Origin: Candidatus Pacearchaeota archaeon
GTDB lineage: Archaea; Nanobdellota; Nanobdellia; Pacearchaeales; GW2011-AR1
DNA length: 64,000 nt
Assembly: GCA_041651235.1 (NCBI GenBank)
Contig: JBAZJQ010000002.1
Location: forward strand, 71,615 to 135,614
Direction of reading: 5' to 3'
This document shows positions 26,072-39,657 of the stretch, piece after piece. Below the pieces are notes generated by a model. The model did no database searches and had not been told where the DNA came from. It worked only from the letters and a program-made list of their open reading frames with translations. How positions within the stretch are numbered: position 1 is the first letter of the stretch; each line of letters starts with the position of its first letter. The position numbers and the translations under genes were made by a program.

Positions 26072-27100
26072 CTATAAGTCCGGGTTATATATTAACTTTG
26101 CTGTTTTTATTATATCTCTTCTTAATTTAAAACTATTTGCCCATTTTGCATAAGCATTCCATCCTTGAAAACTCTCAATTAATTTTTCTTTAGAAATCTC
26201 ATTTCTTTTAAATTCATCAATTTTATTAATAAAATTCTTTATGTTTCTCTTTCTTAACAACCTAAAATAATAAAAATTTCTAAAACCCACAAAATCAATT
26301 CCTCTTGAAAGTCCAATTATCCTTGATTTATCTGGATGAAGTTCAATTTTTAATTTTTCTTTTAAAAATTCATCAATTTCTTTTTTCCAAATTTCTAGCT
26401 GTTCTTTTGATTTATGCAAAATCACAAAGTCATCTACATACCTAATATAATATTTTGCTTTTAATTTAGGTTTTATAAAATAATCTAATTCATTTAAGTA
26501 AACATTAGCAAAAAATTGTGAAGTCAAATTACCAAGGGGCATTCCAACTCCTTCTTCAACTTTCCTGTTAATTAAAATTTTTCTAATTAAATTCATTAAT
26601 TTTTCATCTTCTATTTTTCTTTGAAGAATAGAAATTAAAACTTCATGATTAACCTCTTGAAAATAATGTTTTATATCTGCTTTTAAACAATAAACTTTTT
26701 TTGTTCCATTAAATGAGACTTTTCTCTTGAATAAATCTAATCTTTTTAATGCAAATAAAGTTCCTTTTCCTATTCTATTTGCACAGGAATCATGGATAAA
26801 TATCTTTTCAAAAATAGGCTCAATTATATTTATAATTGAATGATGAACTATTCGGTCTCTAAATATTGACTTCGAGATTTTTCTGGTTTTTGGGTCTCGC
26901 AAAATAAATGTTTTCAAGGGTTTAGGGAAATAAGTTTTATTTTTTAATTCTTCATGTAATTTCAAAATATTCTCTCTAAAATTTTTCTCAAATTTAATAA
27001 CATAATCTTTTTTTGTCTTGCCTTTACGGGCTTTTCTCCATGCAAGAATTAAATCTTTCTTATTATAGATTTCAGAATAAAGATTTTTATAAGTTTTCAT
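26072..27100 (-). CDS. DGR-type reverse transcriptase
   Basis: 342 aa with RT motifs including YVDD and the DGR-typical motif-4 signature PLGNLTSQFFANVYL ([I/L]GxxxSQ). No maturase or endonuclease extension. The TR starts 24 nt upstream of its ATG. Confidence 0.85.
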   Translation of the reverse strand: MKTYKNLYSEIYNKKDLILAWRKARKGKTKKDYVIKFEKNFRENILKLHEELKNKTYFPKPLKTFILRDPKTRKISKSIFRDRIVHHSIINIIEPIFEKIFIHDSCANRIGKGTLFALKRLDLFKRKVSFNGTKKVYCLKADIKHYFQEVNHEVLISILQRKIEDEKLMNLIRKILINRKVEEGVGMPLGNLTSQFFANVYLNELDYFIKPKLKAKYYIRYVDDFVILHKSKEQLEIWKKEIDEFLKEKLKIELHPDKSRIIGLSRGIDFVGFRNFYYFRLLRKRNIKNFINKIDEFKRNEISKEKLIESFQGWNAYAKWANSFKLRRDIIKTAKLIYNPDL

Positions 27101-27124
27101 AATAATAAAGTCCTGAAGCCAAAC

Positions 27125-27209
27125 TATTCCAAGCGAGGCATTAGCATTCTCAGGATTCCTGTTGCAATTCAGGTTAACCCTGTCAGAGTTAGCATTGAAC
27201 CTCGCGACT
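27125..27209 (-). repeat. DGR template repeat (TR), 85 bp, non-coding
   Basis: Aligns without gaps to five ORF 3' ends. Read in the target frame it gives VARFNANSDRVNLNCNRNPENANASLGI, with eight AAY Asn codons. It has 25 A on the minus strand, and 23 of them are substituted in at least one VR. Confidence 0.85.
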
Positions 27210-27451
27210 TTGTTAGCAATTTCATCACTGCATCACTGCAATTATAATTTTCATCAAATAAAAGTAAAAAGCTTCAATCTTCATTTTACTGATTTTAATT
27301 GCGGTATTTCATGGCTTAAATCAAATAAAAATGCTCTAATGAAATTACATGTAGTCTGAATATTCAGAGTAAAACTCCAAAATCTTCAGGACAAGATAAA
27401 AAATAAATAAGATTATATAAATTCTTTCTCATATCAAATTCTTAAATTTTT

Positions 27452-28288
27452 TTACTTAGCGCCTTCGGCGCAACCACGTACCCCAAGCGAGGCAAGAGCA
27501 CCCCCAGGACTCCTGCCGCAACCCAGGTCCACCCAGCCAGAGTTAGCATCCAACCCCGCGACTCTTTCATCTATTTCATTGGGCTTTGAATCTACTCTCC
27601 AGATATATGGATTAGTTTGATTAATCCAATTATAAATAGAATTAATTTGATCAATATCCCCATCTCCTAAAAGTGCATTTAATGCTGGACTATCTCTTGA
27701 TTTAATAAACCTGTCTGGACCAATTATTTTTTCTTCTAATTCATATTGTTCATTTGTTTTGTAATTATGAATAATTTTATCTTTTCCTCTTGGCTGATAA
27801 GCTATTCTTGTTAAAGTTATAGGCCATTTATCTCTCATTGAGCTTTGTATAAACTTTCTTGCTTCTTCTGATTCTGGATTGTCTTTTTGTTCAAATAATG
27901 CTGTAAAAACAGCATGATAAAGAGGCATATCTGCAGTATAAAATTCTCCTTTTGGCTGTGCTATATTTCTGTAGTATACCCAGTAATCCTGAGTTTGTGC
28001 CTGCCCATTTTCAAGCAAAGTTTTAGCTAAATCAAAAGTATGAATTCCATTTCTATAGCTTACATTTGGAATTGTCCAGTAATCTCCTGCATTAATTATT
28101 GATTGATTTGGGTTTGTATTAGCAGGAATAACAACTTCTTGCTTGGGAAGATTATTAGTTTTAGCTTTATTTCCTTTATCTCTTCTGCTTTCTTCTTCTG
28201 CTTCTCTGTTTATTCTTGCAATTAAATCCTTGTCATAATGAATTCTCTTCCAATCTCCTCTGTCTCCTATTTGATTTAAGATTGTCAT
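27452..28288 (-). CDS. DGR variable (target) protein A
   Basis: 278 aa paralog with the shared N-terminus MTILNQIGDRGDWKRIHYDKDLIARINREAEE. VR1 is at the C-terminus (VAGLDANSGWVDLGCGRSPGGALASLGV). No signal peptide or TM segment. Confidence 0.85.
   Translation of the reverse strand: MTILNQIGDRGDWKRIHYDKDLIARINREAEEESRRDKGNKAKTNNLPKQEVVIPANTNPNQSIINAGDYWTIPNVSYRNGIHTFDLAKTLLENGQAQTQDYWVYYRNIAQPKGEFYTADMPLYHAVFTALFEQKDNPESEEARKFIQSSMRDKWPITLTRIAYQPRGKDKIIHNYKTNEQYELEEKIIGPDRFIKSRDSPALNALLGDGDIDQINSIYNWINQTNPYIWRVDSKPNEIDERVAGLDANSGWVDLGCGRSPGGALASLGVRGCAEGAK
27459..27471 (-). promoter_or_regulatory. GC hairpin 3' of VR1
   Basis: gcgcc-ttc-ggcgc, 7 nt from the VR1 boundary. Confidence 0.55.
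27479..27563 (-). repeat. DGR variable repeat VR1
   Basis: 19 mismatches to the TR in 85 bp, 17 of them at TR adenines (hand alignment). Confidence 0.85.
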
Positions 28289-29163
28289 TTTATTCCTCCT
28301 GAATTTTTTGTTTCAGCGCCCTTCGGGCGCACGACTAAACGTACCCCAAGAGAGGCATCAGCATACTCTGGACCCCAGTAGCAATACAGGTTAACCCCGC
28401 CAGAGCTAGCATCGAACCTCGCGACTCTTTCATCTACATTTTTAGGTTTTTCATTTAATCTCCAGAGATATGCATTAGTTTGATTAATCCATTGATAAAC
28501 CGAATTTATTTTATTAATATCTCCATTTCCTAAAAGAGATTTTAATGCCAAGCAATCTCCTGATTCAATGAGTCTATCTGGACCAATTATTTTTTCTTCT
28601 AATTCATATTGTTCATTTGTTTTGTAATTATGAATAATTTTATCTTTTCCTCTTGGCTGATAAGCTATTCTTGTTAAAGTTATAGGACATTTTTGTCTCA
28701 TTGAGTTTTGTATAAATTGCCTTGCTTCTTCAGCAATTTGTTTAAATTGAGGATTGTCTTTTTGTTCAAATAATGCTGTAAAAACAGCATGATAAAGAGG
28801 CATATCTCCTGTATAAAATTCTGCTTTTGGCTGTGCTATCTTTCTGTATTCTGCCCATTGCTCTTGTGTTTTTGCCTGCCCATTTTCAAGCAAAGTTTTA
28901 GATAAATCAAAAGTATGAATTCCATTTCTATAGCTTACATTTGGAATTGTCCAGTAATCTCCTGCATTAATTATTGATTGATTTGGGTTTGCATTTTCAG
29001 GAATAGTTGCTTCTTGCTTGGGAAGATTATTAGTTTTAGCTTTATTTCCTTTATCTCTTCTGCTTTCTTCTTCTGCTTCTCTGTTTATTCTTGCAATTAA
29101 ATCCTTGTCATAATGAATTCTCTTCCAATCTCCTCTGTCTCCTATTTGATTTAAGATTGTCAT
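28285..29163 (-). CDS. DGR variable (target) protein B
   Basis: 292 aa paralog. Its start overlaps... correction: its stop overlaps the start of protein A (ATGA-type junction). VR2 is near the C-terminus and is followed by the tail GVRLVVRPKGAETKNSGGIK. Confidence 0.85.
   Translation of the reverse strand: MTILNQIGDRGDWKRIHYDKDLIARINREAEEESRRDKGNKAKTNNLPKQEATIPENANPNQSIINAGDYWTIPNVSYRNGIHTFDLSKTLLENGQAKTQEQWAEYRKIAQPKAEFYTGDMPLYHAVFTALFEQKDNPQFKQIAEEARQFIQNSMRQKCPITLTRIAYQPRGKDKIIHNYKTNEQYELEEKIIGPDRLIESGDCLALKSLLGNGDINKINSVYQWINQTNAYLWRLNEKPKNVDERVARFDASSGGVNLYCYWGPEYADASLGVRLVVRPKGAETKNSGGIK
28316..28330 (-). promoter_or_regulatory. GC hairpin 3' of VR2
   Basis: gcgccc-ttc-gggcgc. Confidence 0.55.
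28343..28427 (-). repeat. DGR variable repeat VR2
   Basis: 15 mismatches to the TR, 13 of them at TR adenines. Confidence 0.85.
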
Positions 29164-29174
29164 TTTATTTTGGT

Positions 29175-30911
29175 TTATTTTATTCCTCCTCTTAAAATTT
29201 TATCTGTCAAGTCAATTGTTTTATTTGCCAAATCATTATTTCCTAAAACCTGCTCTGCATAAAATCCTGCTTTTTTTAAATCTTTAAACATTTCAGTCTG
29301 ATTTCCTATTTGAAGGTGAAAATAATAATGCTTTCCAGCATTATCTAAATAATTCTTTTTAATGCTTCTCCAATTATCAACCTCTCCATCTGAAATTGAG
29401 AAAATTAAATTCCCTCTTCCTTCAAAAAAACTTTTAACTTTGTTTAAATCTAATGAGGTATCCCCAAATTGAGGAGATAAAGCAACTTTTTTTGATTCAA
29501 GCAGTCCTTTTCCTATAACTGTTTCTTCACTAAATCCAGCTAAATCAACTGCATTTTGGTTTAACAAATGATTTTGCCTTAGATATTCTAAAAATCCATA
29601 CCAAGATAAAAGAGCATAATGATATCTGCTGTTGTTGCCCCAGGGAATCATTGTCTTAGAGCCAGCATCTCTTCCGCCAGCAGGATTCCAAGCCATACTG
29701 CCAGAACAATCAATTAAGCCAAATCTTGCTCTTGGAAATCCTCTCTGACTTATTTTAACTTCAAGAGGCATATTTAGATTCCATCTTTTTTTCTTTATGT
29801 CTAATTCTCCTGAATCATTTACTCCTAAACTTATATGCTTTAAATCATCTGTTTCTGGGTCAAATTCTCTTGAACCATACCAAAAAATAGGCATAGATGA
29901 TTGTTTTGTAAAGCTCTCTGCTTTTATATTTAATTTTTTAGCTAAACTTTCATAAATTAAATCTAATCCTTCAAAACTATTTATCCAATTAGGTATTTCC
30001 TCTCCTGAATTATAAGCTTTTTGAATTCTTGTTCTTTTAAAGTCCTTTGTTTTCATTTCCCTGTCAAATTCATTTCCTTCAGAGGAGCTTTCTTCTGTTT
30101 TTTTTCCTTTTGTTCCTGAACCATTATGGTTCATAAGGCATTGCGCATAATTTGGCTCCATTAACTCAGACATATTTTTTGCATAAGCTTGTGAGATTTT
30201 CTGCCAGTTCTTTTCATTTAAAAGATAACTTCTTATTTTACTTTTATCCCTGATTTTTGCCTCATTTAATTCCTGCTTAAATTCATTTATTCCACTTTCT
30301 TCTAAAAATCCACTTAAAGCTTCTAATATTTTCTTTCTTTGTTTTTCATCTGATGTAAAATATTTTTTTAATTGCTGTTTTTGGGTTTTATTTGCCCATA
30401 AAGCATTGTTTAATCTTGCATGTGCCTCATAAAAAGCAGTATATTTTCCTGAAGTTTCCCCAACATCTTTAAAAAATTCATTTATTCCCTGCAATGAAAA
30501 TCCATTTGACAAGTCATCATGCAGAATTGTATCTTCCAAAGCATTAGACATATAATGAGCATCTTCAGGTGAAAATCCTTTTTCTGCTAAAACATCCATA
30601 ATCGGCTCATAAATTAAATTAACATGATTGTCTAAATTTCTAGGACATCCGGAATACCCTTTATATTTATGATGATTTATTTCATGTCTTATTCCATCTC
30701 TTACAACAATAGGAGTTTTACCTGAATTTTTTTCTTCATAAAAAGGATCATATTTTATTTCTGTTTTTTTGTTTTCTAAAGAAGTTCTCATTTGAAAATG
30801 GGGCTCATTTCTTTGGGGATTATATTCTTCAACAGAGATATCTCTAAAATCAAATCCTCCCCTATTGCTTTCTATTTCAGCTATATTTTTTATTTCTTGT
30901 TTTGTTATCAT
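29175..30911 (-). CDS. HExxH motif + von Willebrand factor A (MIDAS) domain protein
   Basis: 578 aa. HEINH at GIRHEINHHKY in the N-terminal third. MIDAS DxSxS at GLIDCSGSM, with SISDGEVDN later. Sits between target genes C and B. Confidence 0.75.
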   Translation of the reverse strand: MITKQEIKNIAEIESNRGGFDFRDISVEEYNPQRNEPHFQMRTSLENKKTEIKYDPFYEEKNSGKTPIVVRDGIRHEINHHKYKGYSGCPRNLDNHVNLIYEPIMDVLAEKGFSPEDAHYMSNALEDTILHDDLSNGFSLQGINEFFKDVGETSGKYTAFYEAHARLNNALWANKTQKQQLKKYFTSDEKQRKKILEALSGFLEESGINEFKQELNEAKIRDKSKIRSYLLNEKNWQKISQAYAKNMSELMEPNYAQCLMNHNGSGTKGKKTEESSSEGNEFDREMKTKDFKRTRIQKAYNSGEEIPNWINSFEGLDLIYESLAKKLNIKAESFTKQSSMPIFWYGSREFDPETDDLKHISLGVNDSGELDIKKKRWNLNMPLEVKISQRGFPRARFGLIDCSGSMAWNPAGGRDAGSKTMIPWGNNSRYHYALLSWYGFLEYLRQNHLLNQNAVDLAGFSEETVIGKGLLESKKVALSPQFGDTSLDLNKVKSFFEGRGNLIFSISDGEVDNWRSIKKNYLDNAGKHYYFHLQIGNQTEMFKDLKKAGFYAEQVLGNNDLANKTIDLTDKILRGGIK

Positions 30912-30955
30912 TTTGTTTGTATTTTATTATTTAAATTGTTACATTCCAAATTTTT

Positions 30956-31723
30956 TTACTTAGCGCCTTCGGCGCAACCACGTACCCCAAGCGAGGCACC
31001 AGCATTCTCAGGATTCCTGCCGCAATCCAGGTCAACCCTGTCAGAGCCAGCATAGAACCTCGCGACTGAATTATTTCTTGGCTGCCAAAAATAAATATTA
31101 TTTCCTTGAGAATAATTTTGTATACTAGAACTTGTTTTGCATAATCCTTTATCTGTTATATTTGCTTTAGAGCTGATGTCTGCCCAACAATCTGAATTTA
31201 AATAATCACTAATTTCTACTTTATTTGTTAATACTAATTCTCCATTTGATTTAATTCCTTTAATATGCTGAATATAGAATTTATCTCCCTCTTTTGTAAA
31301 ATAAGCGTTTTGGTTTTCTCCATGCCAGATATCTTTAGGAGTTCGTTTAAGAATATCATCATAAACTTCTCTATGTTCCGGATTATCTAAATTATCTTTA
31401 AGATAAAAAATCAATTCCCATGTTTGTTCTGGAGTAGGCATTAAGAGATTTTCAGAAATTAAAGCTTTATTCTGGTCATACCAATTAGTATTTTGATGAG
31501 TTCTTTGTCTTGCAAAACTCATATCTATTAAAGGAACATAAACCCATTTATCATTTATTTCTCCCTTTCCAGCTTGGTTTTGTCTTTGTTCTGTTGGTTT
31601 AACAGGCAGTTTTCCTCTTCTGCTTTTTTCTTCTGCTTCTCTGTTTATTCTTGCAATTAAATCCTTGTCATAAGGAATTCTCTTCCAATCTCCTCTGTCT
31701 CCTATTTGATTTATGATCGTCAT
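30956..31723 (-). CDS. DGR variable (target) protein C (divergent central domain)
   Basis: 255 aa. Shares the N-terminal ~33 aa and the VR/tail (GVRGCAEGAK) with the other targets, but the central ~170 aa are unrelated by eye. Confidence 0.8.
   Translation of the reverse strand: MTIINQIGDRGDWKRIPYDKDLIARINREAEEKSRRGKLPVKPTEQRQNQAGKGEINDKWVYVPLIDMSFARQRTHQNTNWYDQNKALISENLLMPTPEQTWELIFYLKDNLDNPEHREVYDDILKRTPKDIWHGENQNAYFTKEGDKFYIQHIKGIKSNGELVLTNKVEISDYLNSDCWADISSKANITDKGLCKTSSSIQNYSQGNNIYFWQPRNNSVARFYAGSDRVDLDCGRNPENAGASLGVRGCAEGAK
30963..30975 (-). promoter_or_regulatory. GC hairpin 3' of VR3
   Basis: gcgcc-ttc-ggcgc, identical to the VR1 hairpin. Confidence 0.55.
30983..31067 (-). repeat. 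DGR variable repeat VR3
   Basis: 11 mismatches to the TR, all at TR adenines. Confidence 0.85.
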
Positions 31724-32565
31724 ATTAAACTCCTTTTAGAATTTTTTGTTTCAGCGCCCTTCGGGCGCACGACTAAACGTACCCCAAGCGAGGCACCAGC
31801 AACCTCAGGATACCTGCCGCAACTCAGGCAAACCCTGTCAGAGCCAGCACCGAACCCCGCGACTCTTTCATCAACTGATTTAGGCTTTGAATTTAATCTA
31901 AAAAGATAAGCATTAGTTTGATTAATCCAATTATAAATAGAATTAATTTGATTAATATCTTCATTTCCTAAAAGTGCTTTTAATGCTGAACTATCTCCTG
32001 ATTCAATGAGTCTATCTGGACCAATTATATTTTCTTCTAATTCATATTGTTCATTTGTTTTGTAATTATGAATTATTTTATCTTTTCCTCTTGGCTGATA
32101 AGCTATTCTTGTTAAAGTTATAGGATATTTTTGTCTCATTGATTTTTGTATAAACTTTCTTGCTTCTTCTGATTCTGGATTGTCTTTTTGTTCAAATAAT
32201 GCTGTAAAAACAGCATGATAAAGAGGCATATCTCCTGTATAAAATTCTGCTTTTGGCTGTGCTATCTTTCTGTATTCTGCCCATTGCTCTTGTGTTTTTG
32301 CCTGCCCATTTTCAAGCAAAGTTTTAGATAAATCAAAAGTATGAATTCCATTTCTATAGCTTACATTTGGAATTGTCCAGTAATCTCCTACATTAATTAT
32401 TGATTGATTTGGATTTATATTAACAGGAGGATTGGTTTTTATTTTGTTTCCTTTATCTTTTCTGCTTTTTTCTTCTGCTTCTCTGTTTATTCTTGCAATT
32501 AAATCCTTGTCATAATGAATTCTCTTCCAATCTCCTCTGTCTCCTATTTGATTTAAGATTGTCAT
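31720..32565 (-). CDS. DGR variable (target) protein D
   Basis: 281 aa paralog. The N-terminal ~126 aa are identical to protein E, and the tail is like protein B. Confidence 0.85.
   Translation of the reverse strand: MTILNQIGDRGDWKRIHYDKDLIARINREAEEKSRKDKGNKIKTNPPVNINPNQSIINVGDYWTIPNVSYRNGIHTFDLSKTLLENGQAKTQEQWAEYRKIAQPKAEFYTGDMPLYHAVFTALFEQKDNPESEEARKFIQKSMRQKYPITLTRIAYQPRGKDKIIHNYKTNEQYELEENIIGPDRLIESGDSSALKALLGNEDINQINSIYNWINQTNAYLFRLNSKPKSVDERVAGFGAGSDRVCLSCGRYPEVAGASLGVRLVVRPKGAETKNSKRSLI
31754..31768 (-). promoter_or_regulatory. GC hairpin 3' of VR4
   Basis: gcgccc-ttc-gggcgc. Confidence 0.55.
31780..31864 (-). repeat. DGR variable repeat VR4
   Basis: 17 mismatches to the TR, all at TR adenines. 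Confidence 0.85.
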
Positions 32566-32576
32566 GTTATTTTATT

Positions 32577-33425
32577 TTATTTTATTCCTCCTGAATTTTG
32601 TGACGAGTTCGCCTGCGGGCGAACACGTACCCCAAGAGAGGCATCAGCATCCTCAGGAACCCCGTAGCAATCCAGGTCCACCCCGTCAGAGAGCGCATTG
32701 AACCTCGCGACTCTTTCATCTACATTTTTAGGTTTTTCATTTAATCTCCAGAGATATGCATTAGTTTGATTAATCCATTGATAAACCGAATTTATTTTAT
32801 TAATATCTCCATTTCCTAAAAGAGATTTTAATGCCAAGCAATCTCCTGATTCAATGAGTCTATCTGGACCAATTATTTTTTCTTCTAATTCATATTGTTC
32901 ATTTGTTTTGTAATTATGAATAATTTTATCTTTTCCTCTTGGCTGATAAGCTATTCTTGTTAAAGTTATAGGACATTTTTGTCTCATTGAGTTTTGTATA
33001 AATTGCCTTGCTTCTTCAGCAATTTGTTTAAATTGAGGATTGTCTTTTTGTTCAAATAATGCTGTAAAAACAGCATGATAAAGAGGCATATCTCCTGTAT
33101 AAAATTCTGCTTTTGGCTGTGCTATCTTTCTGTATTCTGCCCATTGCTCTTGTGTTTTTGCCTGCCCATTTTCAAGCAAAGTTTTAGATAAATCAAAAGT
33201 ATGAATTCCATTTCTATAGCTTACATTTGGAATTGTCCAGTAATCTCCTACATTAATTATTGATTGATTTGGATTTATATTAACAGGAGGATTGGTTTTT
33301 ATTTTGTTTCCTTTATCTTTTCTGCTTTTTTCTTCTGCTTCTCTGTTTATTCTTGCAATTAAATCCTTGTCATAATGAATTCTCTTCCAATCTCCTCTGT
33401 CTCCTATTTGATTTAAGATTGTCAT
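32577..33425 (-). CDS. DGR variable (target) protein E
   Basis: 282 aa paralog. The body is identical to protein B over ~195 aa up to the VR. It has a different tail (GVRVRPQANSSQNSGGIK). Confidence 0.85.
   Translation of the reverse strand: MTILNQIGDRGDWKRIHYDKDLIARINREAEEKSRKDKGNKIKTNPPVNINPNQSIINVGDYWTIPNVSYRNGIHTFDLSKTLLENGQAKTQEQWAEYRKIAQPKAEFYTGDMPLYHAVFTALFEQKDNPQFKQIAEEARQFIQNSMRQKCPITLTRIAYQPRGKDKIIHNYKTNEQYELEEKIIGPDRLIESGDCLALKSLLGNGDINKINSVYQWINQTNAYLWRLNEKPKNVDERVARFNALSDGVDLDCYGVPEDADASLGVRVRPQANSSQNSGGIK
32607..32624 (-). promoter_or_regulatory. GC hairpin 3' of VR5 (different stem sequence, same structure)
   Basis: gttcgcc-tgcg-ggcgaac. Confidence 0.55.
32628..32712 (-). repeat. 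DGR variable repeat VR5
   Basis: 16 mismatches to the TR, 13 of them at TR adenines. Confidence 0.85.
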
Positions 33426-33446
33426 GTTATTTTATTTTATTTTTAT

Positions 33447-34889
33447 TTATTGCTGCTTATCTTTTTCTTTATTCTCTTGTTTTTCTTGGCTATCTTTATC
33501 TTTCTTGTTTTTTGCCATATCTATTTCAATATCAACTGCATCTTTTACCCAAGACAAACCAATAGCACGATTATTATTAAATGGCTCATAAGGATTAACT
33601 GCACTTTTTCCTTTTTGAGATAATTCGCTGTACCCTAACAAAGTTGTTCCATCTGCAGTTTTAAAATAATCTAAAGCTCTGTTTCCTTTTGTTGCTTCTT
33701 CCAGAGAAGTTAAAATTATGTCCTGATTTTCTTTAAAATCGCTCTTCAATCTTTCTGCAACTTCTGCAATCATTTTTGGAGCTTCATCTAAATATTCTGA
33801 TTTTAATATGCTGGGATTTAAAACATTCTGATAAGCAGAAGTTAATTCAAATGCCTTAAACATTAAATCAACTGGATTTATTTCCTGCTCGGGATTTTTT
33901 AATTTTGCAAGATAATGCAAAGCAGAAGCATATCTGGCAACAGATTGAAGTGTTCTTTGAACAGGAACACTTACAAGAGAACAGATTTCCTTTCCATTTT
34001 TATTTCTTGAACAATCCTGGCATTTATATGGCCAGGTTTTTCCTTTTGCAGTTGGAGATTCTCCTTCTCCCTGGCAATTTCCTAATCCAAACTTTAAATA
34101 ATCCATTACTGCTCTTGCTTCTAATCCCGGCTCCAATGTTAATTGAGAAATTTCTTTGTTTGCCTGAATAATTTTTTCAGTTAAATCTCTTTTAGGGGCT
34201 TCTTTTATTCCAGGATGAGCTTCTCTTAATCTGTCTATAAGAATTCTGTCTTCAATTGTTGGCTGAAACTGGCTGTAATCTAAATCTAAAACTAATCCAA
34301 ACCTGTTCCCAAGTGCTTTATCAACATCAAAAGTTCCCTTAAACTCGCCATTTCCATAATTTGCAGTAGCTATTGAAGAAACATATCCTTTATCTCCAAT
34401 TGGAATTGAATTTCCTTTATGCATTATTCTTCCATTTCCAATTGCTAAAAATTGGTTCTGTGCAATGGGAGGACATCTGTTAAATTCCTCTAAATCCCAA
34501 AATAAAGATTTATGATTGCCATTTAATACTCTTTGAACCTGCTCTTTGTTAATATCAGTTAAAATATCCCGGTAAATATCAAGTTCAGAATGCCCTTCTA
34601 TTGTTAATGCATGTCCCCCTTCTAATTTGCTTCCATTAAAATAATAATTATGAATATCTCTTGCAAGCTGAGATTTACCGCATCCAGTATTTCCAATTAA
34701 AAGAGTGTTCATTCCAGCTAAAACTCCTGCAACAGCTAAATCAGTTACATTTAATCCTGCAAAAAAATTATTAGTATTAAGATAAACAGGGCAGTTTTCT
34801 TTAATATATTCAGGAGTTTTTCCATCTAAAAAAGCTTTTTTTGCTTTTTCCCCTAATTTTAAGTCCTCATAAGATAGTTTATCTGCCAT
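33447..34889 (-). CDS. AAA+ ATPase (MoxR/AAA_5-like) with a Cys-rich insertion and an acidic/Lys-rich tail
   Basis: Walker A LLIGNTGCGKSQ, Walker B-like LFWDLEEF and ATANYG...ALGNRFGLVLDL, reminiscent of MoxR-type sensor/Arg regions. Also CQGEGESPTAKGKTWPYKCQDCSRNKNGKEIC. Confidence 0.7.
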   Translation of the reverse strand: MADKLSYEDLKLGEKAKKAFLDGKTPEYIKENCPVYLNTNNFFAGLNVTDLAVAGVLAGMNTLLIGNTGCGKSQLARDIHNYYFNGSKLEGGHALTIEGHSELDIYRDILTDINKEQVQRVLNGNHKSLFWDLEEFNRCPPIAQNQFLAIGNGRIMHKGNSIPIGDKGYVSSIATANYGNGEFKGTFDVDKALGNRFGLVLDLDYSQFQPTIEDRILIDRLREAHPGIKEAPKRDLTEKIIQANKEISQLTLEPGLEARAVMDYLKFGLGNCQGEGESPTAKGKTWPYKCQDCSRNKNGKEICSLVSVPVQRTLQSVARYASALHYLAKLKNPEQEINPVDLMFKAFELTSAYQNVLNPSILKSEYLDEAPKMIAEVAERLKSDFKENQDIILTSLEEATKGNRALDYFKTADGTTLLGYSELSQKGKSAVNPYEPFNNNRAIGLSWVKDAVDIEIDMAKNKKDKDSQEKQENKEKDKQQ

Positions 34890-35028
34890 TTTCCAATTTC
34901 TCCTTTAAGAATTTATTTAAAGAATATTCTAAAACATGAGATTTGTTTCTAAATAAGCCCTCTTTTAAAAGAGTTTCTATGATTTTTATTTTCTCTTCAT
35001 CAATTGTTATGGATAATTTTTGTTTCAT
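34879..35028 (-). CDS. ribbon-helix-helix (CopG-like) small DNA-binding protein, not in the ORF track
   Basis: Hand-translated 49 aa ORF MKQKLSITIDEEKIKIIETLLKEGLFRNKSHVLEYSLNKFLKEKLENGR. It has a beta-strand then two-helix pattern. Its stop overlaps the ATPase ATG by 11 nt. Confidence 0.6.
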   Translation of the reverse strand: MKQKLSITIDEEKIKIIETLLKEGLFRNKSHVLEYSLNKFLKEKLENGR

Positions 35029-35237: not shown

Positions 35238-35651
35238 ATGATAAATAAAAAATCACAGGTAAGTATTGAATATATAATTATAATGGGATTTGTAACTATT
35301 GTTATAATTGGGCTTTTGGGTATTGCTTTTGTTTATAGTGGGAGCATAAAAGACAGGCTTAAAATGACTCAAATAAATAATTTTGGAAATAAAATAATAT
35401 CCACAGCAGAATCTGTTTTTTATTATGGAGAGCCTTCCAAAGCTACAATTTCTGTTTATCTTCCAGAAAATGTTGAACAAATTGAAATATCAGAAAATAC
35501 CTTGTTTATTACATATCAAGGAAGTTCTGGAATAGATAAAATTGCCTTTTCAAGTGAAGTTCCTATTGAAGGAACTTTAAATTCCATTTCAGGTGTTAAA
35601 AAAATAGAAATTATAGCTGAAGAAAGTAGAGCAACAATTAGCCAAGTTTAA
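35238..35651 (+). CDS. archaeal pilin-like protein (class III signal peptide)
   Basis: MINKKSQVSIEYIIIMGFVTIVIIGLLGIAFVY. Confidence 0.65.
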   Translation: MINKKSQVSIEYIIIMGFVTIVIIGLLGIAFVYSGSIKDRLKMTQINNFGNKIISTAESVFYYGEPSKATISVYLPENVEQIEISENTLFITYQGSSGIDKIAFSSEVPIEGTLNSISGVKKIEIIAEESRATISQV

Positions 35652-35652
35652 A

Positions 35653-36048
35653 ATGATTTTCAAAAAAGCACAAAGCAGTATTGAGTTTATGATTCTTGTA
35701 GGGGTAGTTATATTTTTTTTAGTTGTTTTCTTAGGAGCAATACAAGGGAGTATGTCTGATAAATTAAAAGAAAAACAAAGCATTATGGTTCAGGATTTAG
35801 CTTCATCTGTTCAAGATGAAATTAATCTTGCTTCAAAATCAAGTGATGGCTATTACAGAAATTTTAATATTCCTGAAAAAATAAATGGCAGAGATTATAG
35901 TATTGAAATATTAGAGGAAATGGTTTATGTTAAAACAAATGATAATAAAAATGCTCTTGCTCTCCCTCTTGCTTCTGTAACTGGAAATGTTGTAAAAGGA
36001 GAGAATATAATTACAAAACAAAATGGAGAGGTTGTTTTGAATCCGTAA
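35653..36048 (+). CDS. archaeal pilin-like protein (class III signal peptide)
   Basis: MIFKKAQSSIEFMILVGVVIFFLVVFLG. Confidence 0.65.
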   Translation: MIFKKAQSSIEFMILVGVVIFFLVVFLGAIQGSMSDKLKEKQSIMVQDLASSVQDEINLASKSSDGYYRNFNIPEKINGRDYSIEILEEMVYVKTNDNKNALALPLASVTGNVVKGENIITKQNGEVVLNP

Positions 36049-36049
36049 A

Positions 36050-36556
36050 ATGAAAGAACAAGCAATAATTATTTTTATTCCAAATAATAAGAAAATAGAT
36101 GATGTTAGAAAAAAATATGATAGGTATTATAAAGAATTTAAGCCACATATAACTTTGGTTTATCCATTTAAAGTTGCTAACCAAAAAAAGGTTTGTGAAC
36201 ATATTATTAATTCTATAAAAAATTTTAAATCATTTAAAATAGAATTAAAAGGATTAAAAAGATCAGCTAAAGAGTATTATCTTTATCTTGTAATTAATAA
36301 AGGAAAAAATAATATTGTCAAATTGTATAAAAAACTTAATTCTGGAATATTAAAGGGATTTGAAAATAAAAAAATGCCTAGATATATCCCCCATGTAACT
36401 CTTGGAAGCTTTTCTAGCAAATCTAAGATGGAGGAAGCAATTAAAATTATTAAAAAGAAGGATATTAAAATAAATGCAGATATAAGCAAAATTCATCTAC
36501 TGACTTTTAAAAAAGGAGCAGAAATAGAAAAAATTAAGGGGTTTAAATTAAAATGA
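36050..36556 (+). CDS. 2H phosphoesterase (LigT / 2'-5' RNA ligase-like)
   Basis: Two HxT/S motifs, KPHITLVYPF and IPHVTLGSF, about 80 aa apart. Confidence 0.7.
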   Translation: MKEQAIIIFIPNNKKIDDVRKKYDRYYKEFKPHITLVYPFKVANQKKVCEHIINSIKNFKSFKIELKGLKRSAKEYYLYLVINKGKNNIVKLYKKLNSGILKGFENKKMPRYIPHVTLGSFSSKSKMEEAIKIIKKKDIKINADISKIHLLTFKKGAEIEKIKGFKLK

Positions 36557-37056
36557 AAATAAAAAACAAGTCTGCACAAGCCTGGGGAATGGATTTAATG
36601 ATTGGAGTGATTATTTTTTCAATTGGAATAATTGTATTTTTTATTTATTCAATTAATGCACCTGGAGAGCAAAAAGAAAATTTTCAGGAGCTTTCTTATC
36701 AGGGAAATTTAATAGCTAAAACTATTTTATCAGAGGGATATCCTTTAGATTGGAATGACATTAATGCAGTTAAAATTGGAATTTTAAGTGGAGATAAAAT
36801 AAATCAAACTAAATTAGAAAGGTTTTATGATTTAAGCCAGTCAAATTATTATAAAACAAAAACTCTTTTTAATACAAAATATGATTATTATTTTTTCTTT
36901 GATAAAAATATGACAATTAATTCTGTTGAAGTTGATGGTATTGGAAAGCCAGGAATAACAAGAGATAATATTAATGCATCAAATTTAATTAAAATTACAA
37001 GAGTTGTTGTTTATGAAGATAAGCCAACAACTGCTTATTTGTATGTGTTTGAATAA
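36553..37056 (+). CDS. archaeal pilin-like protein (class III signal peptide)
   Basis: KNKSAQAWGMDLMIGVIIFSIGIIVFFIY. Confidence 0.6.
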   Translation: MKIKNKSAQAWGMDLMIGVIIFSIGIIVFFIYSINAPGEQKENFQELSYQGNLIAKTILSEGYPLDWNDINAVKIGILSGDKINQTKLERFYDLSQSNYYKTKTLFNTKYDYYFFFDKNMTINSVEVDGIGKPGITRDNINASNLIKITRVVVYEDKPTTAYLYVFE

Positions 37057-37161: not shown

Positions 37162-39657
37162 ATGGCAATGAACAAAAAAGGGGTGTTTTTTAGTACAGAT
37201 GCATTGATAGCACTAATTATAATTTTAATGAGCATAGTTGTGGCATACCCAATAATAAAATATTCCACTTATGAAACTTCTATTCAAAGTGATGTTATGA
37301 ATGTTTTATCTGTTCTGAAAATAGGAGAGATAGATAATGTTTATGTTCAAGGTTTAATCAGCAATGGGAATATTAGCAATCTAAATAATACGGTTTTAGA
37401 ACAAATAGGAGAATTTTATGTTACAGATGAGGAGCAGGCTAAATTATTATGTGATTCAGTTTTATCTGAATTAGATATTAAAGAAAGTATTGGAATTTGG
37501 TATGGGGATAAACTAATTTGTTCTGTAAATTCAACTGCAATTGATAATCCAAAGAATATTGAAGTTGACAGGCAGATTATAAGTGGAATAAGAGAAGGAG
37601 AAAGTGTAACTGGATTTTCTGCAAGAGCTTATCTTTCAAGAGATATCCAAACTAAATATTTTTATTTTGGAGGCTATGTTGGAGATGGAAATATCAGCTT
37701 GAATATAGATTATAGTGGAATTATTAATTCTTCTGAAATTGAACTAACAATTAATAATGATTTTGAAATTTATGTTAATGGGGACAAACAAGGAGATTAT
37801 TCTAAATCTGCTTCGGAATTTATTCCGGTAAGATATTCTATTCCTGCTGTGGATTTTAATTCTGGAAATAATTTAATTGAAATTAGAGGCAAGAATTTAC
37901 ATATTGGAGGAGGATATATAAAGATAAATTACAAGCCAAATGTCCAATATACTCAAACAAAGAAATATTCTTTTCCTGGAATTGATGGGATTGTTAATTT
38001 ATATGATGGTTTTGATTTTCCAAGCCAGATAAACGAAATGAACTTATTCCTCCATATAGATAATAATAATACATTTTTTTTGATAATTGGGAATCAAACA
38101 GTTTATGATGGAGCTACATCTGGTGAAGAAGAAATCACAATTAATGATGCAAGTTTATCTTCTTTATTAGATTATGATTCTTTAGAAGGGAAAACAGTTC
38201 CAATAAGATTAGGATTAGAAAATGCTTCTTACACCTCACAATTAGGCGGAATTGGAGATGTTTATTCTGTTACTGATTTATCTGGGAGCATGGCTGATGG
38301 TTGTATTAATTATAATTGGTTTTGCTGTCTTCTTTCTGGTTCTTGTAATACTCAAACAAAATGTAATTCTTGTTCTGGTTATTGGCAGGAAAAAATAACA
38401 TTAGCTAAACAAGCAAATAAAGTTTTTATTGATTCTGTTTTAAATATATCTGGAAACAGAGTTGGACTGATTGGCTATGCAACATCAAGTATTTCTAGTT
38501 ATTCTCATGTTCTTTCAAATGATTCTGTTTCTTTAAAGGCAAAAGTAGACCAATGGGTTGCAAATGGAAATACTTGTGTTTGTTGTGGTATAAACAGTGC
38601 AGTTAGTGGTTTGCTTAATTACTCAACTTCAGATAAATTCCGTTCAATGGTTGTTATGAGTGATGGGGAAGCCAATGTCCAGTGTGCTCAACAAGGAACT
38701 GGAAATGCAAAACAAGATGCAATAAAAGCTGCATGTGATGCTTATAATAATTATGGCATAAGAGTTTATTCAGTTGGATTTGCTGATGCAGATGAAACAA
38801 CTTTGCAGGCAATAGCAACTTGCGGTAATGGAAGTTATTATTATAGTAGTATTTCAGAGATAGCTGAAATTTATCAGGAAATTGCAGAAGATATAATTGA
38901 AGCTTCTTATAATGAGCAGACAATAGAAATCTTAGGACAGTTATACAGCAAGCTATATCCTAATTCTTATATTGAAATTGATTATACAGAAGAGCAAATT
39001 CCTTATGGATTAATTATCTCGAGTGAAAAACAATTTGATAATGAGTATCAAGGAAGTTTTGATATACCTTTTAATTCAAGTGTATTAGATGTGAAGGTTG
39101 TTTCTTATTCTGGGCCTAGATGGACAAAAGAAGTTAATATAAATAATATTAATGTTTATGATTTAAGTTCTTATGGTTCTGATTATATTAAACTTGGAGA
39201 TCCTTATGTAATTAATATTCCAACCTATTTAATAAACACAACAAATAATATAGAAGTTACAACAGGACTTTCTCCATTGAATTCAAGTGCAGGTTCTGTT
39301 TATAATAAAATTATTTATAGTATTCTAAAAAATGTAACTGCTTATTCTCAGATTTCTGCTTCTGCAGAAGGATGCATCTGGAATCTTGAATTTGAAGATA
39401 ATTCAACATCTGCTGTAAGAATTCCTATTTCTTATGTTGGCTCAAATGAGTGTTACTATACTTCTTCAAATATAGCTTATAATGAAAATGATGCTATACA
39501 AAATGCAGTTTATAGTTTGCTGACTAAACTTGATTTTGATTCCAATGGAAAAATTGACAGCCAAATCTTTACACAAGATTTGAAAATAGAATCCAGTGAA
39601 ATCACAGGAATTCCATATACCTGGAGCACAGAAGTGCAGGTGAGAAGATGGGATTGA
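37162..39657 (+). CDS. large pilin-like surface protein with a vWA domain
   Basis: N-terminal KKGVFFSTDALIALIIILMSIVVAY (class III-like). MIDAS VTDLSGSM with VVMSDGEAN. Cys-rich CCLLSGSCNTQTKCNSCSG. Confidence 0.7.
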   Translation: MAMNKKGVFFSTDALIALIIILMSIVVAYPIIKYSTYETSIQSDVMNVLSVLKIGEIDNVYVQGLISNGNISNLNNTVLEQIGEFYVTDEEQAKLLCDSVLSELDIKESIGIWYGDKLICSVNSTAIDNPKNIEVDRQIISGIREGESVTGFSARAYLSRDIQTKYFYFGGYVGDGNISLNIDYSGIINSSEIELTINNDFEIYVNGDKQGDYSKSASEFIPVRYSIPAVDFNSGNNLIEIRGKNLHIGGGYIKINYKPNVQYTQTKKYSFPGIDGIVNLYDGFDFPSQINEMNLFLHIDNNNTFFLIIGNQTVYDGATSGEEEITINDASLSSLLDYDSLEGKTVPIRLGLENASYTSQLGGIGDVYSVTDLSGSMADGCINYNWFCCLLSGSCNTQTKCNSCSGYWQEKITLAKQANKVFIDSVLNISGNRVGLIGYATSSISSYSHVLSNDSVSLKAKVDQWVANGNTCVCCGINSAVSGLLNYSTSDKFRSMVVMSDGEANVQCAQQGTGNAKQDAIKAACDAYNNYGIRVYSVGFADADETTLQAIATCGNGSYYYSSISEIAEIYQEIAEDIIEASYNEQTIEILGQLYSKLYPNSYIEIDYTEEQIPYGLIISSEKQFDNEYQGSFDIPFNSSVLDVKVVSYSGPRWTKEVNINNINVYDLSSYGSDYIKLGDPYVINIPTYLINTTNNIEVTTGLSPLNSSAGSVYNKIIYSILKNVTAYSQISASAEGCIWNLEFEDNSTSAVRIPISYVGSNECYYTSSNIAYNENDAIQNAVYSLLTKLDFDSNGKIDSQIFTQDLKIESSEITGIPYTWSTEVQVRRWD

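Follow-up and report, generated by a model that had tools for sequence, protein, structure and literature searches.

Our analysis suggests that, in a very small, symbiotic DPANN archaeon, genes rewritten by a DGR share one operon with a putative ATP-driven chaperone and a predicted metal-binding adaptor. Positions 29175–35028 of the window (the whole 64,000-nt stretch of DNA analysed) are probably the non-RT portion of one conserved DPANN operon, in which the ATPase and vWA proteins would form a chaperone/adaptor pair for leader-tagged client proteins, some of them DGR-diversified, with recognition in the cytoplasm; this likelihood applies jointly to the whole explanation. The features of the cassette are as follows:

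34879–35028, minus strand: ribbon-helix-helix (RHH) regulator, 49 aa; its end (stop) runs 11 nt into the start of the ATPase gene
33447–34889, minus strand: AAA+ ATPase, 480 aa, AAA_5 (MoxR/dynein/chelatase-like) class by Pfam AAA_5
32577–33425, minus strand: DGR target E, 282 aa (leader 33324–33425, VR about 32626–32711, hairpin 32607–32624)
31720–32565, minus strand: DGR target D, 281 aa (leader 32464–32565, VR about 31778–31863, hairpin 31754–31768)
30956–31723, minus strand: DGR target C, 255 aa (leader 31622–31723, VR about 30981–31066, hairpin 30963–30975)
29175–30911, minus strand: HExxH + vWA protein, 578 aa, from an AF2 model, Foldseek and motif conservation
29922–30911, minus strand: its N-terminal HExxH domain, residues 1–330 (H76-E77-x-x-H80, G88-C89-P90, N123...D127)
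29178–29744, minus strand: its predicted vWA domain, about residues 390–578 (MIDAS D401-x-S403-x-S405, T485, D508)
28285–29163, minus strand: DGR target B, 292 aa (leader 29062–29163, VR about 28340–28425, hairpin 28316–28330)
27452–28288, minus strand: DGR target A, 278 aa (leader 28187–28288, VR about 27477–27562, hairpin 27459–27471)
about 27125–27208, minus strand: template repeat (TR), VR-frame reading KVARFNANSDRVNLNCNRNPENANASLGI, eight AAY Asn codons
26072–27100, minus strand: DGR reverse transcriptase (RT), 342 aa (LGNLTSQ at residue 189, YVDD at residue 221)

Every ORF lies where the first-pass annotation had placed it, all on the minus strand and in the order RHH, AAA_5/MoxR-like ATPase, targets E/D/C, HExxH+vWA, targets B/A, TR and RT. 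The junctions, earlier described as overlapping or 11–44 nt, measure −11, 21, 11, −4, 44, 11 and −4 nt from RHH to target A (range −11 to +44 nt), and 351 nt, with the TR inside, separate target A from the RT. The RT matches Pfam RVT_1 (2.9e-22) and the PADLOC RT (1e-52). All five window targets align to the TR at their 3′ ends, and 71 of the 88 TR–VR mismatches fall at TR adenines; a GC hairpin lies 3′ of every window VR and none downstream of the window TR. This adenine bias and the post-VR hairpins establish that the window DGR is real. Adenine-specific TR/VR pairs also occur in 18 of 23 related loci with RT and targets, where 450 of 507 mismatches are at adenines.

A new point is that all targets of a locus begin with a near-identical N-terminal leader of ∼30 aa. 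Among the window paralogues, leader identity has a median of 1.00, and body identity falls to 0.06 in the lowest pair; target C shares the leader and VR with the other targets and has an unrelated middle domain. The within-locus median is about 1.0 for leaders (25 residues) versus 0.20 for bodies. In vWA-centred loci L001–L019, the leader HMM (E < 0.1) matches only the N-terminal ends (first ∼60 residues) of same-strand ORFs. Gene conversion could be a partial cause of the leader identity within loci. Every sequence search for a CLec fold in the targets was negative.

The identity of the ATPase as a MoxR-like AAA+ protein, proposed at first pass, is supported by a Pfam AAA_5 match above threshold (E 1.2e-5, 25.7 bits; cutoff 22), by AAA_5 matches in 21 of 28 relatives (a few match AAA_3 or bpMoxR) and by conserved motifs (i.e. 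Walker A GxxGxGK[ST], Walker B ExNR, sensor-1 TAN, Arg finger and sensor-2 Arg). Its lid region holds a conserved 4-Cys insert (C272/C290/C293/C303). Some sources label its homologues ‘MoxR family ATPase’.

The 578-aa protein, with HEINH at residues 76–80, a MIDAS-type DCSGS at 401–405 and a beta-rich linker between its two domains, has no match in Pfam, NCBIfam, PADLOC or PDB sequences. Its AF2 model has a pLDDT of 87.5 overall and 92.7 in the N-domain. Foldseek against the PDB matches the C-terminal half to CLCA1 VWA, TFIIH p44, NorD and BatB (E 1.6e-4 to 1.5e-3), and the distant family member P0289 scores above the Pfam VWA threshold. The modelled fold and the conserved MIDAS thus agree with the vWA domain recognized at first pass, and we regard this half as a true vWA domain on the strength of the model. 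Of 169 full-length family representatives, 160 keep an intact HExxH and 167 keep the complete MIDAS, which suggests that both metal sites are under purifying selection. The metalloprotease-like reading of HEINH stands only as regards the motif, kept family-wide; the N-terminal domain has no significant structural match (best PDB E about 1), and the SprT-like zincins found in BFVD are weak local matches (high local probability, E ≥ 0.07).

Support for the RHH regulator, a small, predicted DNA-binding protein, comes at the family level: seven of 12 aligned members match Pfam RHH_1 (best E 4e-4), with the window copy below threshold, and 11 aligned orthologues are 53–83% identical to that copy. 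Orthologues lie immediately upstream of the ATPase in 11 genome loci, and in 24 of all 129 loci retrieved; in 23 other loci the same slot holds a non-homologous protein of ∼50 aa.

We compared 63 vWA-centred genome loci, nearly all from DPANN. The gene arrangement is non-random, with the identical order in dozens of independent DPANN contigs. Co-occurrence of the ATPase and vWA genes, part of the first-pass reading, holds in both directions: the ATPase is present at 27 of 28 vWA-centred loci having at least 5 kb upstream, and the vWA gene at 12 of 16 ATPase-centred metagenome loci with at least 2.5 kb downstream. Fully flanked vWA-centred loci contain recognized targets in 12 of 20 cases and an RT in 11 of 20, while three complete ATPase–target–TR–RT cassettes (L081, L086 and L100) have no vWA gene. 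The pair is also retained at L013, L015, L052, L053 and L061, with no RT in the retrieved span (20 kb), and RT-less L018 retains the vWA gene with no ATPase within its 22-kb span. At these six loci the flanking arrays encode proteins with a locus-specific shared N-terminal leader, in some cases of the window's leader family, and, as a further new point, with ankyrin, beta-helix-repeat or propeller-like bodies or bodies without a Pfam match. At RT-less L058 the pair adjoins an LRR protein with no obvious leader. Because the pair and the leaders persist at RT-less relatives, the pair would serve leader-tagged binder proteins rather than retrohoming, and is tied primarily to such proteins in general. 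The first-pass picture of an NTPase-coupled module with diversified sensors is supported in part, in its components and their co-occurrence; the putative peptidase has no significant fold match, and the pair extends beyond DGR loci.

The clients would be the small proteins encoded around the pair, each built from three parts: the locus-shared leader, then a linker of low complexity, then a binder domain that the DGR would rewrite on its C-terminal face. As precedent, extended peptides are ligands of MIDAS sites, and in bacteria MoxR–vWA ternary systems are coupled to DGRs (PMC7159879, PMC10907252). We infer that (i) the leader may be a handle by which clients dock at the vWA MIDAS and/or the ATPase ring; (ii) clients may be loaded, remodelled or released through ATP hydrolysis; and (iii) the HExxH site may cut the leader, or else a captured ligand or substrate. 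Apart from HExxH, the cassette contains no recognizable toxin/effector domain. The likeliest role would be an immune-type sensor for viruses or mobile elements, or the capture of host-derived factors.

Recognition would be cytoplasmic because no cassette protein has an export signal. As claimed earlier for the targets, a hydropathy scan finds no TM- or signal-like hydrophobic stretch in any cassette protein (maximum KD19 at most 0.65 in targets and 0.53 in the vWA protein, versus at least 2.6 in flanking pilins and T2SSF proteins); hydropathy is the one basis for this predicted location, in organisms whose export routes are poorly known. A predicted, conserved operon of DGR targets, ATPase, vWA/HExxH protein and regulator favours a system of variable receptors in the cytoplasm over adhesins on the surface.

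The variable proteins could instead be surface or pilus adhesins that bind a host cell, with the ATPase and vWA proteins chaperoning unconventional export or assembly and the leader serving as an export or assembly signal, possibly cut off by the HExxH domain. Host attachment is the prevailing view for DPANN DGR targets (PMC8867640, PMC8632793), a type IV pilus-like cluster and pilin-like genes flank the window cassette, Foldseek ranks a vWA-bearing pilin (7b7p) first among the matches to the full model, and the relatives' ankyrin and LRR proteins resemble symbiont effectors. We nevertheless judge this explanation unlikely: none of the cassette proteins has a signal peptide, a class III signal or a TM segment, pilus genes do not stay with the cassette across relatives (pilin-like neighbours at one of the 63 loci) and the conserved core has no secretion component. 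Nor are MoxR-type ATPases known to work as secretion motors.

DGRs are often viral, and the AAA_5 and HExxH/vWA proteins might be a chaperone for assembling virions or tails, of the type encoded by archaeal tailed viruses, with the targets serving an integrated or degraded element as its receptor-binding proteins. Tailed-virus AAA_5 + vWA pairs (‘CobS/CobT-like’) resemble the cassette: in HVTV-1 the AAA_5 ATPase gp59 adjoins, in the same order and strand, the long protein gp57, whose N-terminal region contains HExxH (‘MHECGH’) and whose C-terminal part is a vWA domain. In structure, the modelled N-domain is weakly similar to large viral ‘VWFA/CobT’ proteins (TMq 0.36–0.38), gp57 among them (0.38), and about seven related loci have a tyrosine recombinase directly past the RT. 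However, the HVTV-1 proteins show no significant sequence similarity to those of the cassette (hhalign probability 0.5% and 2.3%), and the viral pairs come with neither a DGR nor leader-tagged paralogues. The window flanks contain no capsid, terminase or tail genes and the window no integrase; the vWA family is absent among 2.9 million IMG/VR contigs, and tblastn of the vWA protein against 50,697 phage records gave no match. A viral origin is therefore, in our view, somewhat less probable still than export.

Much less credible is a retrohoming accessory role, in which the ATPase and vWA proteins functionally replace Avd or HRDC. They are embedded in, and conserved with, the DGR cassette, and the interval from target A to the RT contains no Avd-like ORF. 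However, the RT-less loci described above, L058 and L018 included, keep the pair or its vWA member, mostly beside leader-tagged non-DGR proteins; the conserved leader is on proteins, not a DNA target site; and vWA/MIDAS domains are modules that bind proteins. The reading that unrelated genes lie side by side by chance, or form independent transcription units, is effectively refuted by the synteny across contigs from different samples, with junctions overlapping or at most 44 nt.

The chaperone/adaptor pair proposed here can be set beside several known systems. The CLCA family likewise combines HExxH (a zincin protease domain) and a MIDAS-bearing vWA in one polypeptide, and CLCA1 VWA is among the best structural matches of the vWA half (E 2.4e-4, TMt 0.62). 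By contrast, CLCA proteins are secreted, eukaryotic and without an ATPase partner, and the likeness shown is one of vWA halves. RavA–ViaA, CbbQ–CbbO and NorQ–NorD also encode an AAA_5-class ATPase with a vWA/MIDAS adaptor, and the NorD vWA domain of the NorQD complex (9qhd) is among the Foldseek matches (E 7.7e-4). However, these systems mature one specific metallo-enzyme, whereas the neighbours of the archaeal pair are hypervariable or repeat-type binder arrays.

The DGR itself resembles the multi-target DPANN/Nanoarchaeota DGRs of Paul et al. 2015 (PMC4372165) in its kind of RT, multiple tandem targets, C-terminal VRs and trinucleotide-loop GC hairpin 3′ of the VR. One of our loci (L037) is that of SCGC AAA011-G17, a genome covered in that study. 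We found no mention of the ATPase, vWA protein or shared leader in the DPANN DGR literature, taken without Paul et al. 2017, and a 2022 review by the same first author states that DPANN DGR targets ‘remain entirely uncharacterized’.

The closest parallel is bacterial. The first-pass annotation held that DGRs and MoxR–vWA systems had been described separately; they have in fact been described jointly, as VMAP-ternary MoxR–vWA conflict systems with DGR in cyanobacteria and gammaproteobacteria (Kaur et al. 2020, PMC7159879; Dore et al. 2024, PMC10907252). In the bacterial and archaeal systems alike, a MoxR-like AAA+ ATPase and a vWA/MIDAS protein are encoded, together with a peptidase-type activity (putative in the archaeal case), in the gene neighbourhood of a DGR whose diversified targets are CLec/FGS-type binders (the archaeal CLec fold is putative); in both, a cytoplasmic location is predicted for the targets and a sensor role is proposed for them. 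The archaeal cassette differs in that (i) it has no VMAP component; (ii) the binder is unfused to the vWA protein and resides on two to six free-standing small leader-sharing proteins; (iii) the HExxH domain, of a fold without a significant match, is fused to the vWA protein; (iv) the regulator is an RHH or AbrB-like protein; and (v) the hosts are unicellular DPANN archaea. The DPANN cassette is best described as an archaeal version of these DGR-coupled MoxR–vWA systems of bacteria.

Nine ORFs are packed tightly on the minus strand from position 26072 to 35028 of the window, all of them exactly at the coordinates and in the order reported in the first-pass annotation. The cassette is laid out as follows:

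34879–35028, minus strand: 49-aa protein, putative ribbon-helix-helix (RHH) regulator
33447–34889, minus strand: 480-aa predicted ATPase
32577–33425, minus strand: target E
31720–32565, minus strand: target D
30956–31723, minus strand: target C
29175–30911, minus strand: 578-aa protein with an HExxH motif and a predicted vWA domain
28285–29163, minus strand: target B
27452–28288, minus strand: target A
about 27125–27208, minus strand: template repeat (TR) of ~84 nt, which can be aligned to the 3′ ends of all five targets
26072–27100, minus strand: 342-aa reverse transcriptase (RT), separated from target A by a 351-nt spacer

The junctions from the 49-aa gene to target A measure −11, 21, 11, −4, 44, 11 and −4 nt. 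The window is AT-rich (GC 26–32%), and no second copy of any cassette component was found within it.

The DGR of the window is genuine. Across the five variable repeats (VRs), 71 of the 88 TR–VR mismatches are located at TR adenines and the remainder lie mostly at the 3′ boundary; the TR translated in the VR frame reads KVARFNANSDRVNLNCNRNPENANASLGI, with eight AAY codons. The RT matches Pfam RVT_1 (2.9e-22) and carries motifs of the DGR type (i.e. LGNLTSQ at residue 189 and YVDD at residue 221). No Avd-like or HRDC accessory gene was detected between target A and the RT, where there is no minus-strand ORF of at least 45 aa; such genes are common in DGRs, not universal. A GC hairpin lies 3′ of each window VR (GCGCC-GAA-GGCGC, GCGCCC-GAA-GGGCGC or GTTCGCC-CGCA-GGCGAAC) and is absent after the TR. 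This hairpin (e.g. GCGCC-GAA-GGCGC) is the trinucleotide-loop hairpin reported for nanoarchaeal DGRs (PMC4372165).

We then compared the cassette with related loci. A vWA profile scanned over one genome per GTDB species retrieved 63 loci, nearly all from MAGs of Woese-, Pace-, Nano- and Micrarchaeota, and the gene order on long enough contigs is regulator, ATPase, target(s), vWA, target(s), TR and RT. The ATPase is present in 27/28 vWA-centred loci with at least 5 kb upstream; among the 20 loci flanked on both sides, 19 contain the ATPase, 12 recognisable targets, 11 the RT and 10 all three. In the reverse direction, the vWA gene occurs in 12/16 ATPase-centred metagenome loci with at least 2.5 kb downstream. 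TR/VR pairs, searched with the targets masked and in both orientations, were found in 18 of the 23 loci with an RT and targets, and 450/507 of their mismatches are at TR adenines. Co-occurrence in both directions bears out the association claimed in the first-pass annotation: the ATPase/vWA pair is conserved with the DGR cassette across DPANN loci. Three compact cassettes with (RHH–)ATPase, target(s), TR and RT are complete without a vWA gene (L081:371–3508, L086:4761–8386 and L100:1497–6127). The vWA family is small, with 442 clusters at 50% identity among 1.84 billion representatives.

Several side observations concern the distribution and surroundings of these loci. A few family members also occur in bins labelled Saccharibacteria, Aerophobetes or Methanosarcinales (L009, L059, L023, L060 and L063), explained either by horizontal transfer or by mis-binned DPANN contigs. 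The same ATPase family is also accompanied by another class of VR in L086 (6083–6850 and 11038–11763) and L127 (11212–12117 and 14043–14951), with C-termini like LSRLYxxWNLNxNSNDxxLAxSxxxGRVV and an Asn-rich TR translation; the two L127 paralogues have their own common leader (MSNFDLYKQWAERYAQRVSQ). A tyrosine recombinase is encoded near the cassette in L001 (13566–15713; Phage_integrase, 1e-8), L006, L016, L025, L046, L063 and L127. Its gene is found shortly after the RT in L001, L006, L016 and L025, preceded by a gene for a 290–350-aa protein that L046, L049 and L063 also encode. These are hints that some cassettes reside on integrative elements; no tyrosine recombinase or integrase was found in the window. 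About 11 loci have genes for wHTH-nucleotidyltransferase (MNT) and HEPN proteins next to the cassette (L006:5457–6029, L013:7508–8341, L004:451–1977 and about 9 others).

The targets share a common N-terminal leader, a feature that the first-pass annotation did not see. All five window targets start with MTI[LI]NQIGDRGDWKRI.YDKDLIARINREAEE, including target C, the middle part of which has almost nothing in common with the other window targets. When proteins of the same locus are compared (24 loci), a 25-residue stretch of the leader has a median identity of about 1.0, versus 0.20 for the bodies; a K/E/P/Q/N-rich linker comes after the leader. A leader HMM with the consensus h-[IL]-G-[DN]-[KR]-x-K-S-x-h-D-x-x-L-A-x-x-h-N has matches (E < 0.1) that are confined to the N-terminal ~60 residues of same-strand ORFs in the vWA-centred loci L001–L019. 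Clades further away carry leaders of other types, e.g. MKIQIPDNFMGKPIKGSIEKVL and ALFDKxRRxEIR. We rejected the RGD of the window leader ('DRGDW') as an integrin-style MIDAS ligand because RGD is not conserved in other loci. Beyond the leader, the targets have a conserved C-terminal pattern (RVARFxAxS...LxC...P......LGVR), no match in Pfam or PDB by sequence or profile (Pfam searched with 30 members) and 62 homologues that are all named 'hypothetical'.

Relatives without an RT indicate what the ATPase/vWA pair is constantly associated with. The pair is retained in five loci (L013, L015, L052, L053 and L061) that lack an RT within about 20 kb. In the 22-kb span of L018, which is likewise RT-less, the vWA gene was found but not the ATPase. 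Arrays of proteins with a locus-specific common N-terminal leader flank these genes in all six loci. In L018 (237–15194) there are at least 17 leader-HMM matches, and the members scanned have no Pfam match; one leader-bearing member of L061 has an ankyrin body (Ank_2, 2e-22); L013 members contain Chlamydia-PMP/beta-helix repeats and propeller-like repeats; and L015 members have repeat-rich bodies without a Pfam match. A further RT-less locus, L058, keeps the pair beside an LRR protein (LRR_8, 6e-31) without an obvious leader. Since RT-less loci keep the pair, it is not an accessory of retrohoming, and since these loci carry leader arrays, the constant partners of the pair are leader-tagged binder scaffolds, among which the DGR-rewritten domain is one kind. 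The tie between the pair and the DGR that had been proposed for the window holds as an association, but the leader-tagged binders, and not the DGR as such, are what the pair is linked to.

A small DNA-binding regulator appears to be a fixed feature of the predicted operon because its slot is filled either by the RHH or by an alternative protein. Orthologues of the 49-aa protein lie directly upstream of the ATPase, and the 11 aligned are 53–83% identical to the window copy, while the vWA proteins in the same loci share only about 30% identity. Pfam RHH_1 is matched by 7 of the 12 aligned members (best 4e-4), with the window copy sub-threshold, and there is a weak ParD match (0.049). The RHH call of the first-pass annotation is therefore supported at the level of the family, to which the window copy belongs by sequence. 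In 23 other loci, a different ~50-aa protein with the consensus TITKKIAKHGxQSVIVIPxFLxxELKPKTIVEVKI replaces it (e.g. L043:7738–7908, L007:3818–3988 and L128:9780–9998), in nearly all of them in the same slot just upstream of the ATPase start and usually overlapping it. This protein is AbrB/SpoVT-like by eye and Pfam-negative, and the two types are mutually exclusive, never occurring together in one locus.

The ATPase of the window matches Pfam AAA_5 with 25.7 bits, above the curated cutoff of 22, as do 21 of 28 relatives (best E 3.2e-9); occasional AAA_3, bpMoxR, Mg-chelatase or sigma-54 matches among the relatives all belong to the MoxR/dynein/chelatase part of the AAA+ tree. Residues that are invariant or at least 90% conserved include G66/G71/K72 (Walker A), E135-x-N137-R138 (Walker B, ExNR), T175-A-N177 (sensor 1), R196 (Arg finger) and R312 (sensor 2), and the lid region has a conserved four-cysteine insert. 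Sequence matches in PDB are to generic AAA+ proteins only. Because of these matches and motifs, we file the protein as AAA_5/MoxR-like, in agreement with the earlier assignment as a MoxR-like AAA+ ATPase, with intact catalytic motifs and a predicted vWA partner encoded alongside.

The 578-aa protein has no match in Pfam, NCBIfam, PADLOC or PDB (phmmer and profile). The Pfam VWA profile matches neither the window protein nor 33 relatives, and the vWA domain of the family is revealed only by structure and by one distant family member, P0289, which passes the Pfam VWA threshold (25.8 versus 23.8 bits). In an AlphaFold2 model built with 33 homologues (pLDDT 87.5, pTM 0.80), the C-terminal third is predicted to adopt a Rossmann-like vWA fold, for which Foldseek against PDB retrieves the CLCA1 VWA domain, TFIIH p44, NorD of the NorQD complex, BatB and Rpn10 (best E 1.6e-4, probability 1.00 for all five). 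CLCA proteins have an HExxH-plus-MIDAS architecture in common with the 578-aa protein, by analogy only. Among 169 full-length family representatives, the MIDAS (D401-x-S403-x-S405, T485 and D508) is complete in 167 and the HExxH (H76, E77 and H80) intact in 160, so both metal sites are under strong purifying selection; candidate third metal ligands are D127 (168/169), C89 (161/169) and E126 (119/169).

In the model, H76-E77-x-x-H80 lies at the end of helix 65–79, after strands 24–29, 39–43 and 49–54. The N-terminal 330 residues modelled alone (pLDDT 92.7) have no significant Foldseek neighbour in PDB (best E about 1), where the weak matches are LTA4H, ZMPSTE24, BlaR1, CapP, DPP3 and MMP-11. 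Against the viral models of BFVD, ten or more local matches to SprT-like minimal zincins have probabilities of 0.75–0.98, but E values of at least 0.07 (rmsd about 3.4–5.4 Å over about 80–90 columns), and there is moderate global similarity to large viral 'VWFA/CobT' proteins (TMq 0.36–0.38). Based on the conserved motif, local topology and weak fold evidence, the N-terminal domain is plausibly a putative zincin peptidase. Of the HExxH+vWA architecture proposed earlier, the vWA fold with its MIDAS and the conserved HExxH stand, but a zincin fold finds no significant match.

A viral origin of the cassette has a low probability. AAA_5 plus vWA pairs of tailed viruses are nevertheless a second analogue of the cassette, after the bacterial systems discussed below. 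The case for a viral origin comes from the haloarchaeal tailed virus HVTV-1 (L130, KC117377, 25607–29463), whose gp59 is an AAA_5 ATPase and whose gp57 (743 aa) combines an HExxH ('MHECGH', near residue 106) in its N-terminal part with a Pfam VWA domain at the C-terminus, i.e. the same architecture as the cassette pair; however, the sequence similarity is not significant in profile comparison by hhalign. Moreover, the vWA family has no match in IMG/VR contigs, and tblastn against phages gives no match for the vWA protein and only two marginal matches for the ATPase.

In the window, the cassette is flanked by a type IV pilus/archaellum-like cluster and other genes:

19970–20944, minus strand: 324-aa protein with two tandem AsnC/Lrp-type wHTH modules
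21766–23555, minus strand: two T2SSF membrane proteins of the pilus/archaellum-like cluster
23552–25168, minus strand: T2SSE ATPase of the same cluster
35238–35651, 35653–36048 and 36553–37056, plus strand: three small proteins with pilin-like hydrophobic N-termini
36050–36556, plus strand: 2′-5′ RNA ligase/LigT-like phosphoesterase (2_5_RNA_ligase2, 1.4e-21), between the pilin-like genes
37162–39657, plus strand: 831-aa protein with a hydrophobic N-terminal segment and a Pfam VWA match (4e-8), directly after the pilin-like genes

We rejected a link between the cassette and the pilus cluster (21766–25168, minus; 35238–37056, plus) because pilus genes are not conserved beside the cassette in other loci. 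The 831-aa protein may be a vWA-bearing pilus adhesin and is unrelated to the cassette vWA family, whose HMM does not match it. The LigT-like protein has a weak match to the anti-CBASS Acb1 family.

Unlike the neighbouring pilins and T2SSF proteins, no cassette protein has a signal or TM segment by hydropathy, in line with the earlier remark that the targets lack export signals. For this reason, the system most likely acts in the cytoplasm. Points against the mechanism proposed below are the lack of an obvious effector in the cassette, the lack of a significant fold match for the HExxH domain, the existence of some cassettes without a vWA gene, the negative outcome of sequence and profile searches for a C-type-lectin fold in the targets, and the limited knowledge of DPANN export routes.

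Extended peptides are known ligands of MIDAS sites, and vWA adaptors link MoxR ATPases to their clients (PMC7159879). By this precedent, (i) the binders could dock through their leader on the vWA MIDAS site and/or the ATPase; (ii) ATP hydrolysis would load, remodel or release the binders; (iii) the HExxH site might cleave the leader or the captured molecule; and (iv) the biological role might be immune-type sensing or host-factor capture. The ligand-sensing module put forward in the first-pass annotation is plausible as a functional reading. A more specific proposal, which we regard as tentative and rather doubtful, is that DPANN archaea possess a leader-addressed, ATP-driven receptor hub. Its MoxR-like ATPase and HExxH-vWA adaptor would dock interchangeable cytoplasmic binders (i.e. 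DGR-rewritten putative lectin-like, ankyrin, beta-helix and propeller-like) via the leader, and its HExxH site would process leader or ligand, forming an intracellular, continuously re-diversified immune or host-factor-capture system in unicellular episymbionts.

Of the archaeal RTs known from DPANN, about 80% belong to DGRs (PMC8632793), and the DGR targets, 'entirely uncharacterized' according to the 2022 review of Paul and Eren (PMC8867640), are usually assumed to be attachment proteins. Our results reveal a large DPANN DGR clade embedded in a conserved, putatively co-transcribed operon that also encodes a MoxR-like ATPase, an HExxH-bearing MIDAS adaptor and a small regulator, and define three dark protein families with their conserved residues (i.e. 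the HExxH-vWA protein, the leader-tagged targets and the ATPase subfamily). Together, the common leader, the absence of export signals and the operon offer the first concrete, testable mechanism for the partners of the diversified proteins. If the receptor-hub proposal were true, DPANN DGR targets could no longer be assumed to be surface adhesins, and the proposed tie of DGR/MoxR-vWA conflict systems to multicellularity would be broken.

Among systems described so far, those nearest to the cassette are the VMAP-ternary MoxR-vWA conflict systems associated with DGRs in cyanobacteria and gammaproteobacteria (PMC7159879; PMC10907252). This bacterial precedent already couples the two themes, contrary to the first-pass annotation, which held that MoxR-vWA systems and DGR sensors had been described separately in bacteria. 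The DGR surveys covered here, which did not extend to Paul et al. 2017, make no mention of the ATPase/vWA neighbourhood in DPANN, and a prior mention in the latter is possible. The DPANN cassette differs from the VMAP-ternary systems (Kaur 2020, PMC7159879) in three respects: (i) they have VMAP as third component, whereas none of the cassette proteins matches the VMAP domain or any PADLOC model; (ii) their effector/FGS is fused to the vWA protein, whereas the VR-bearing proteins of the cassette are separate ORFs; and (iii) they prefer multicellular prokaryotes, whereas the cassette hosts (Woese-, Pace-, Nano- and Micrarchaeota) are not multicellular. The cassette plausibly works like these bacterial systems. 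It is an archaeal variant of the known bacterial DGR and MoxR-vWA theme, which is thereby extended from multicellular bacteria to minimal archaea.
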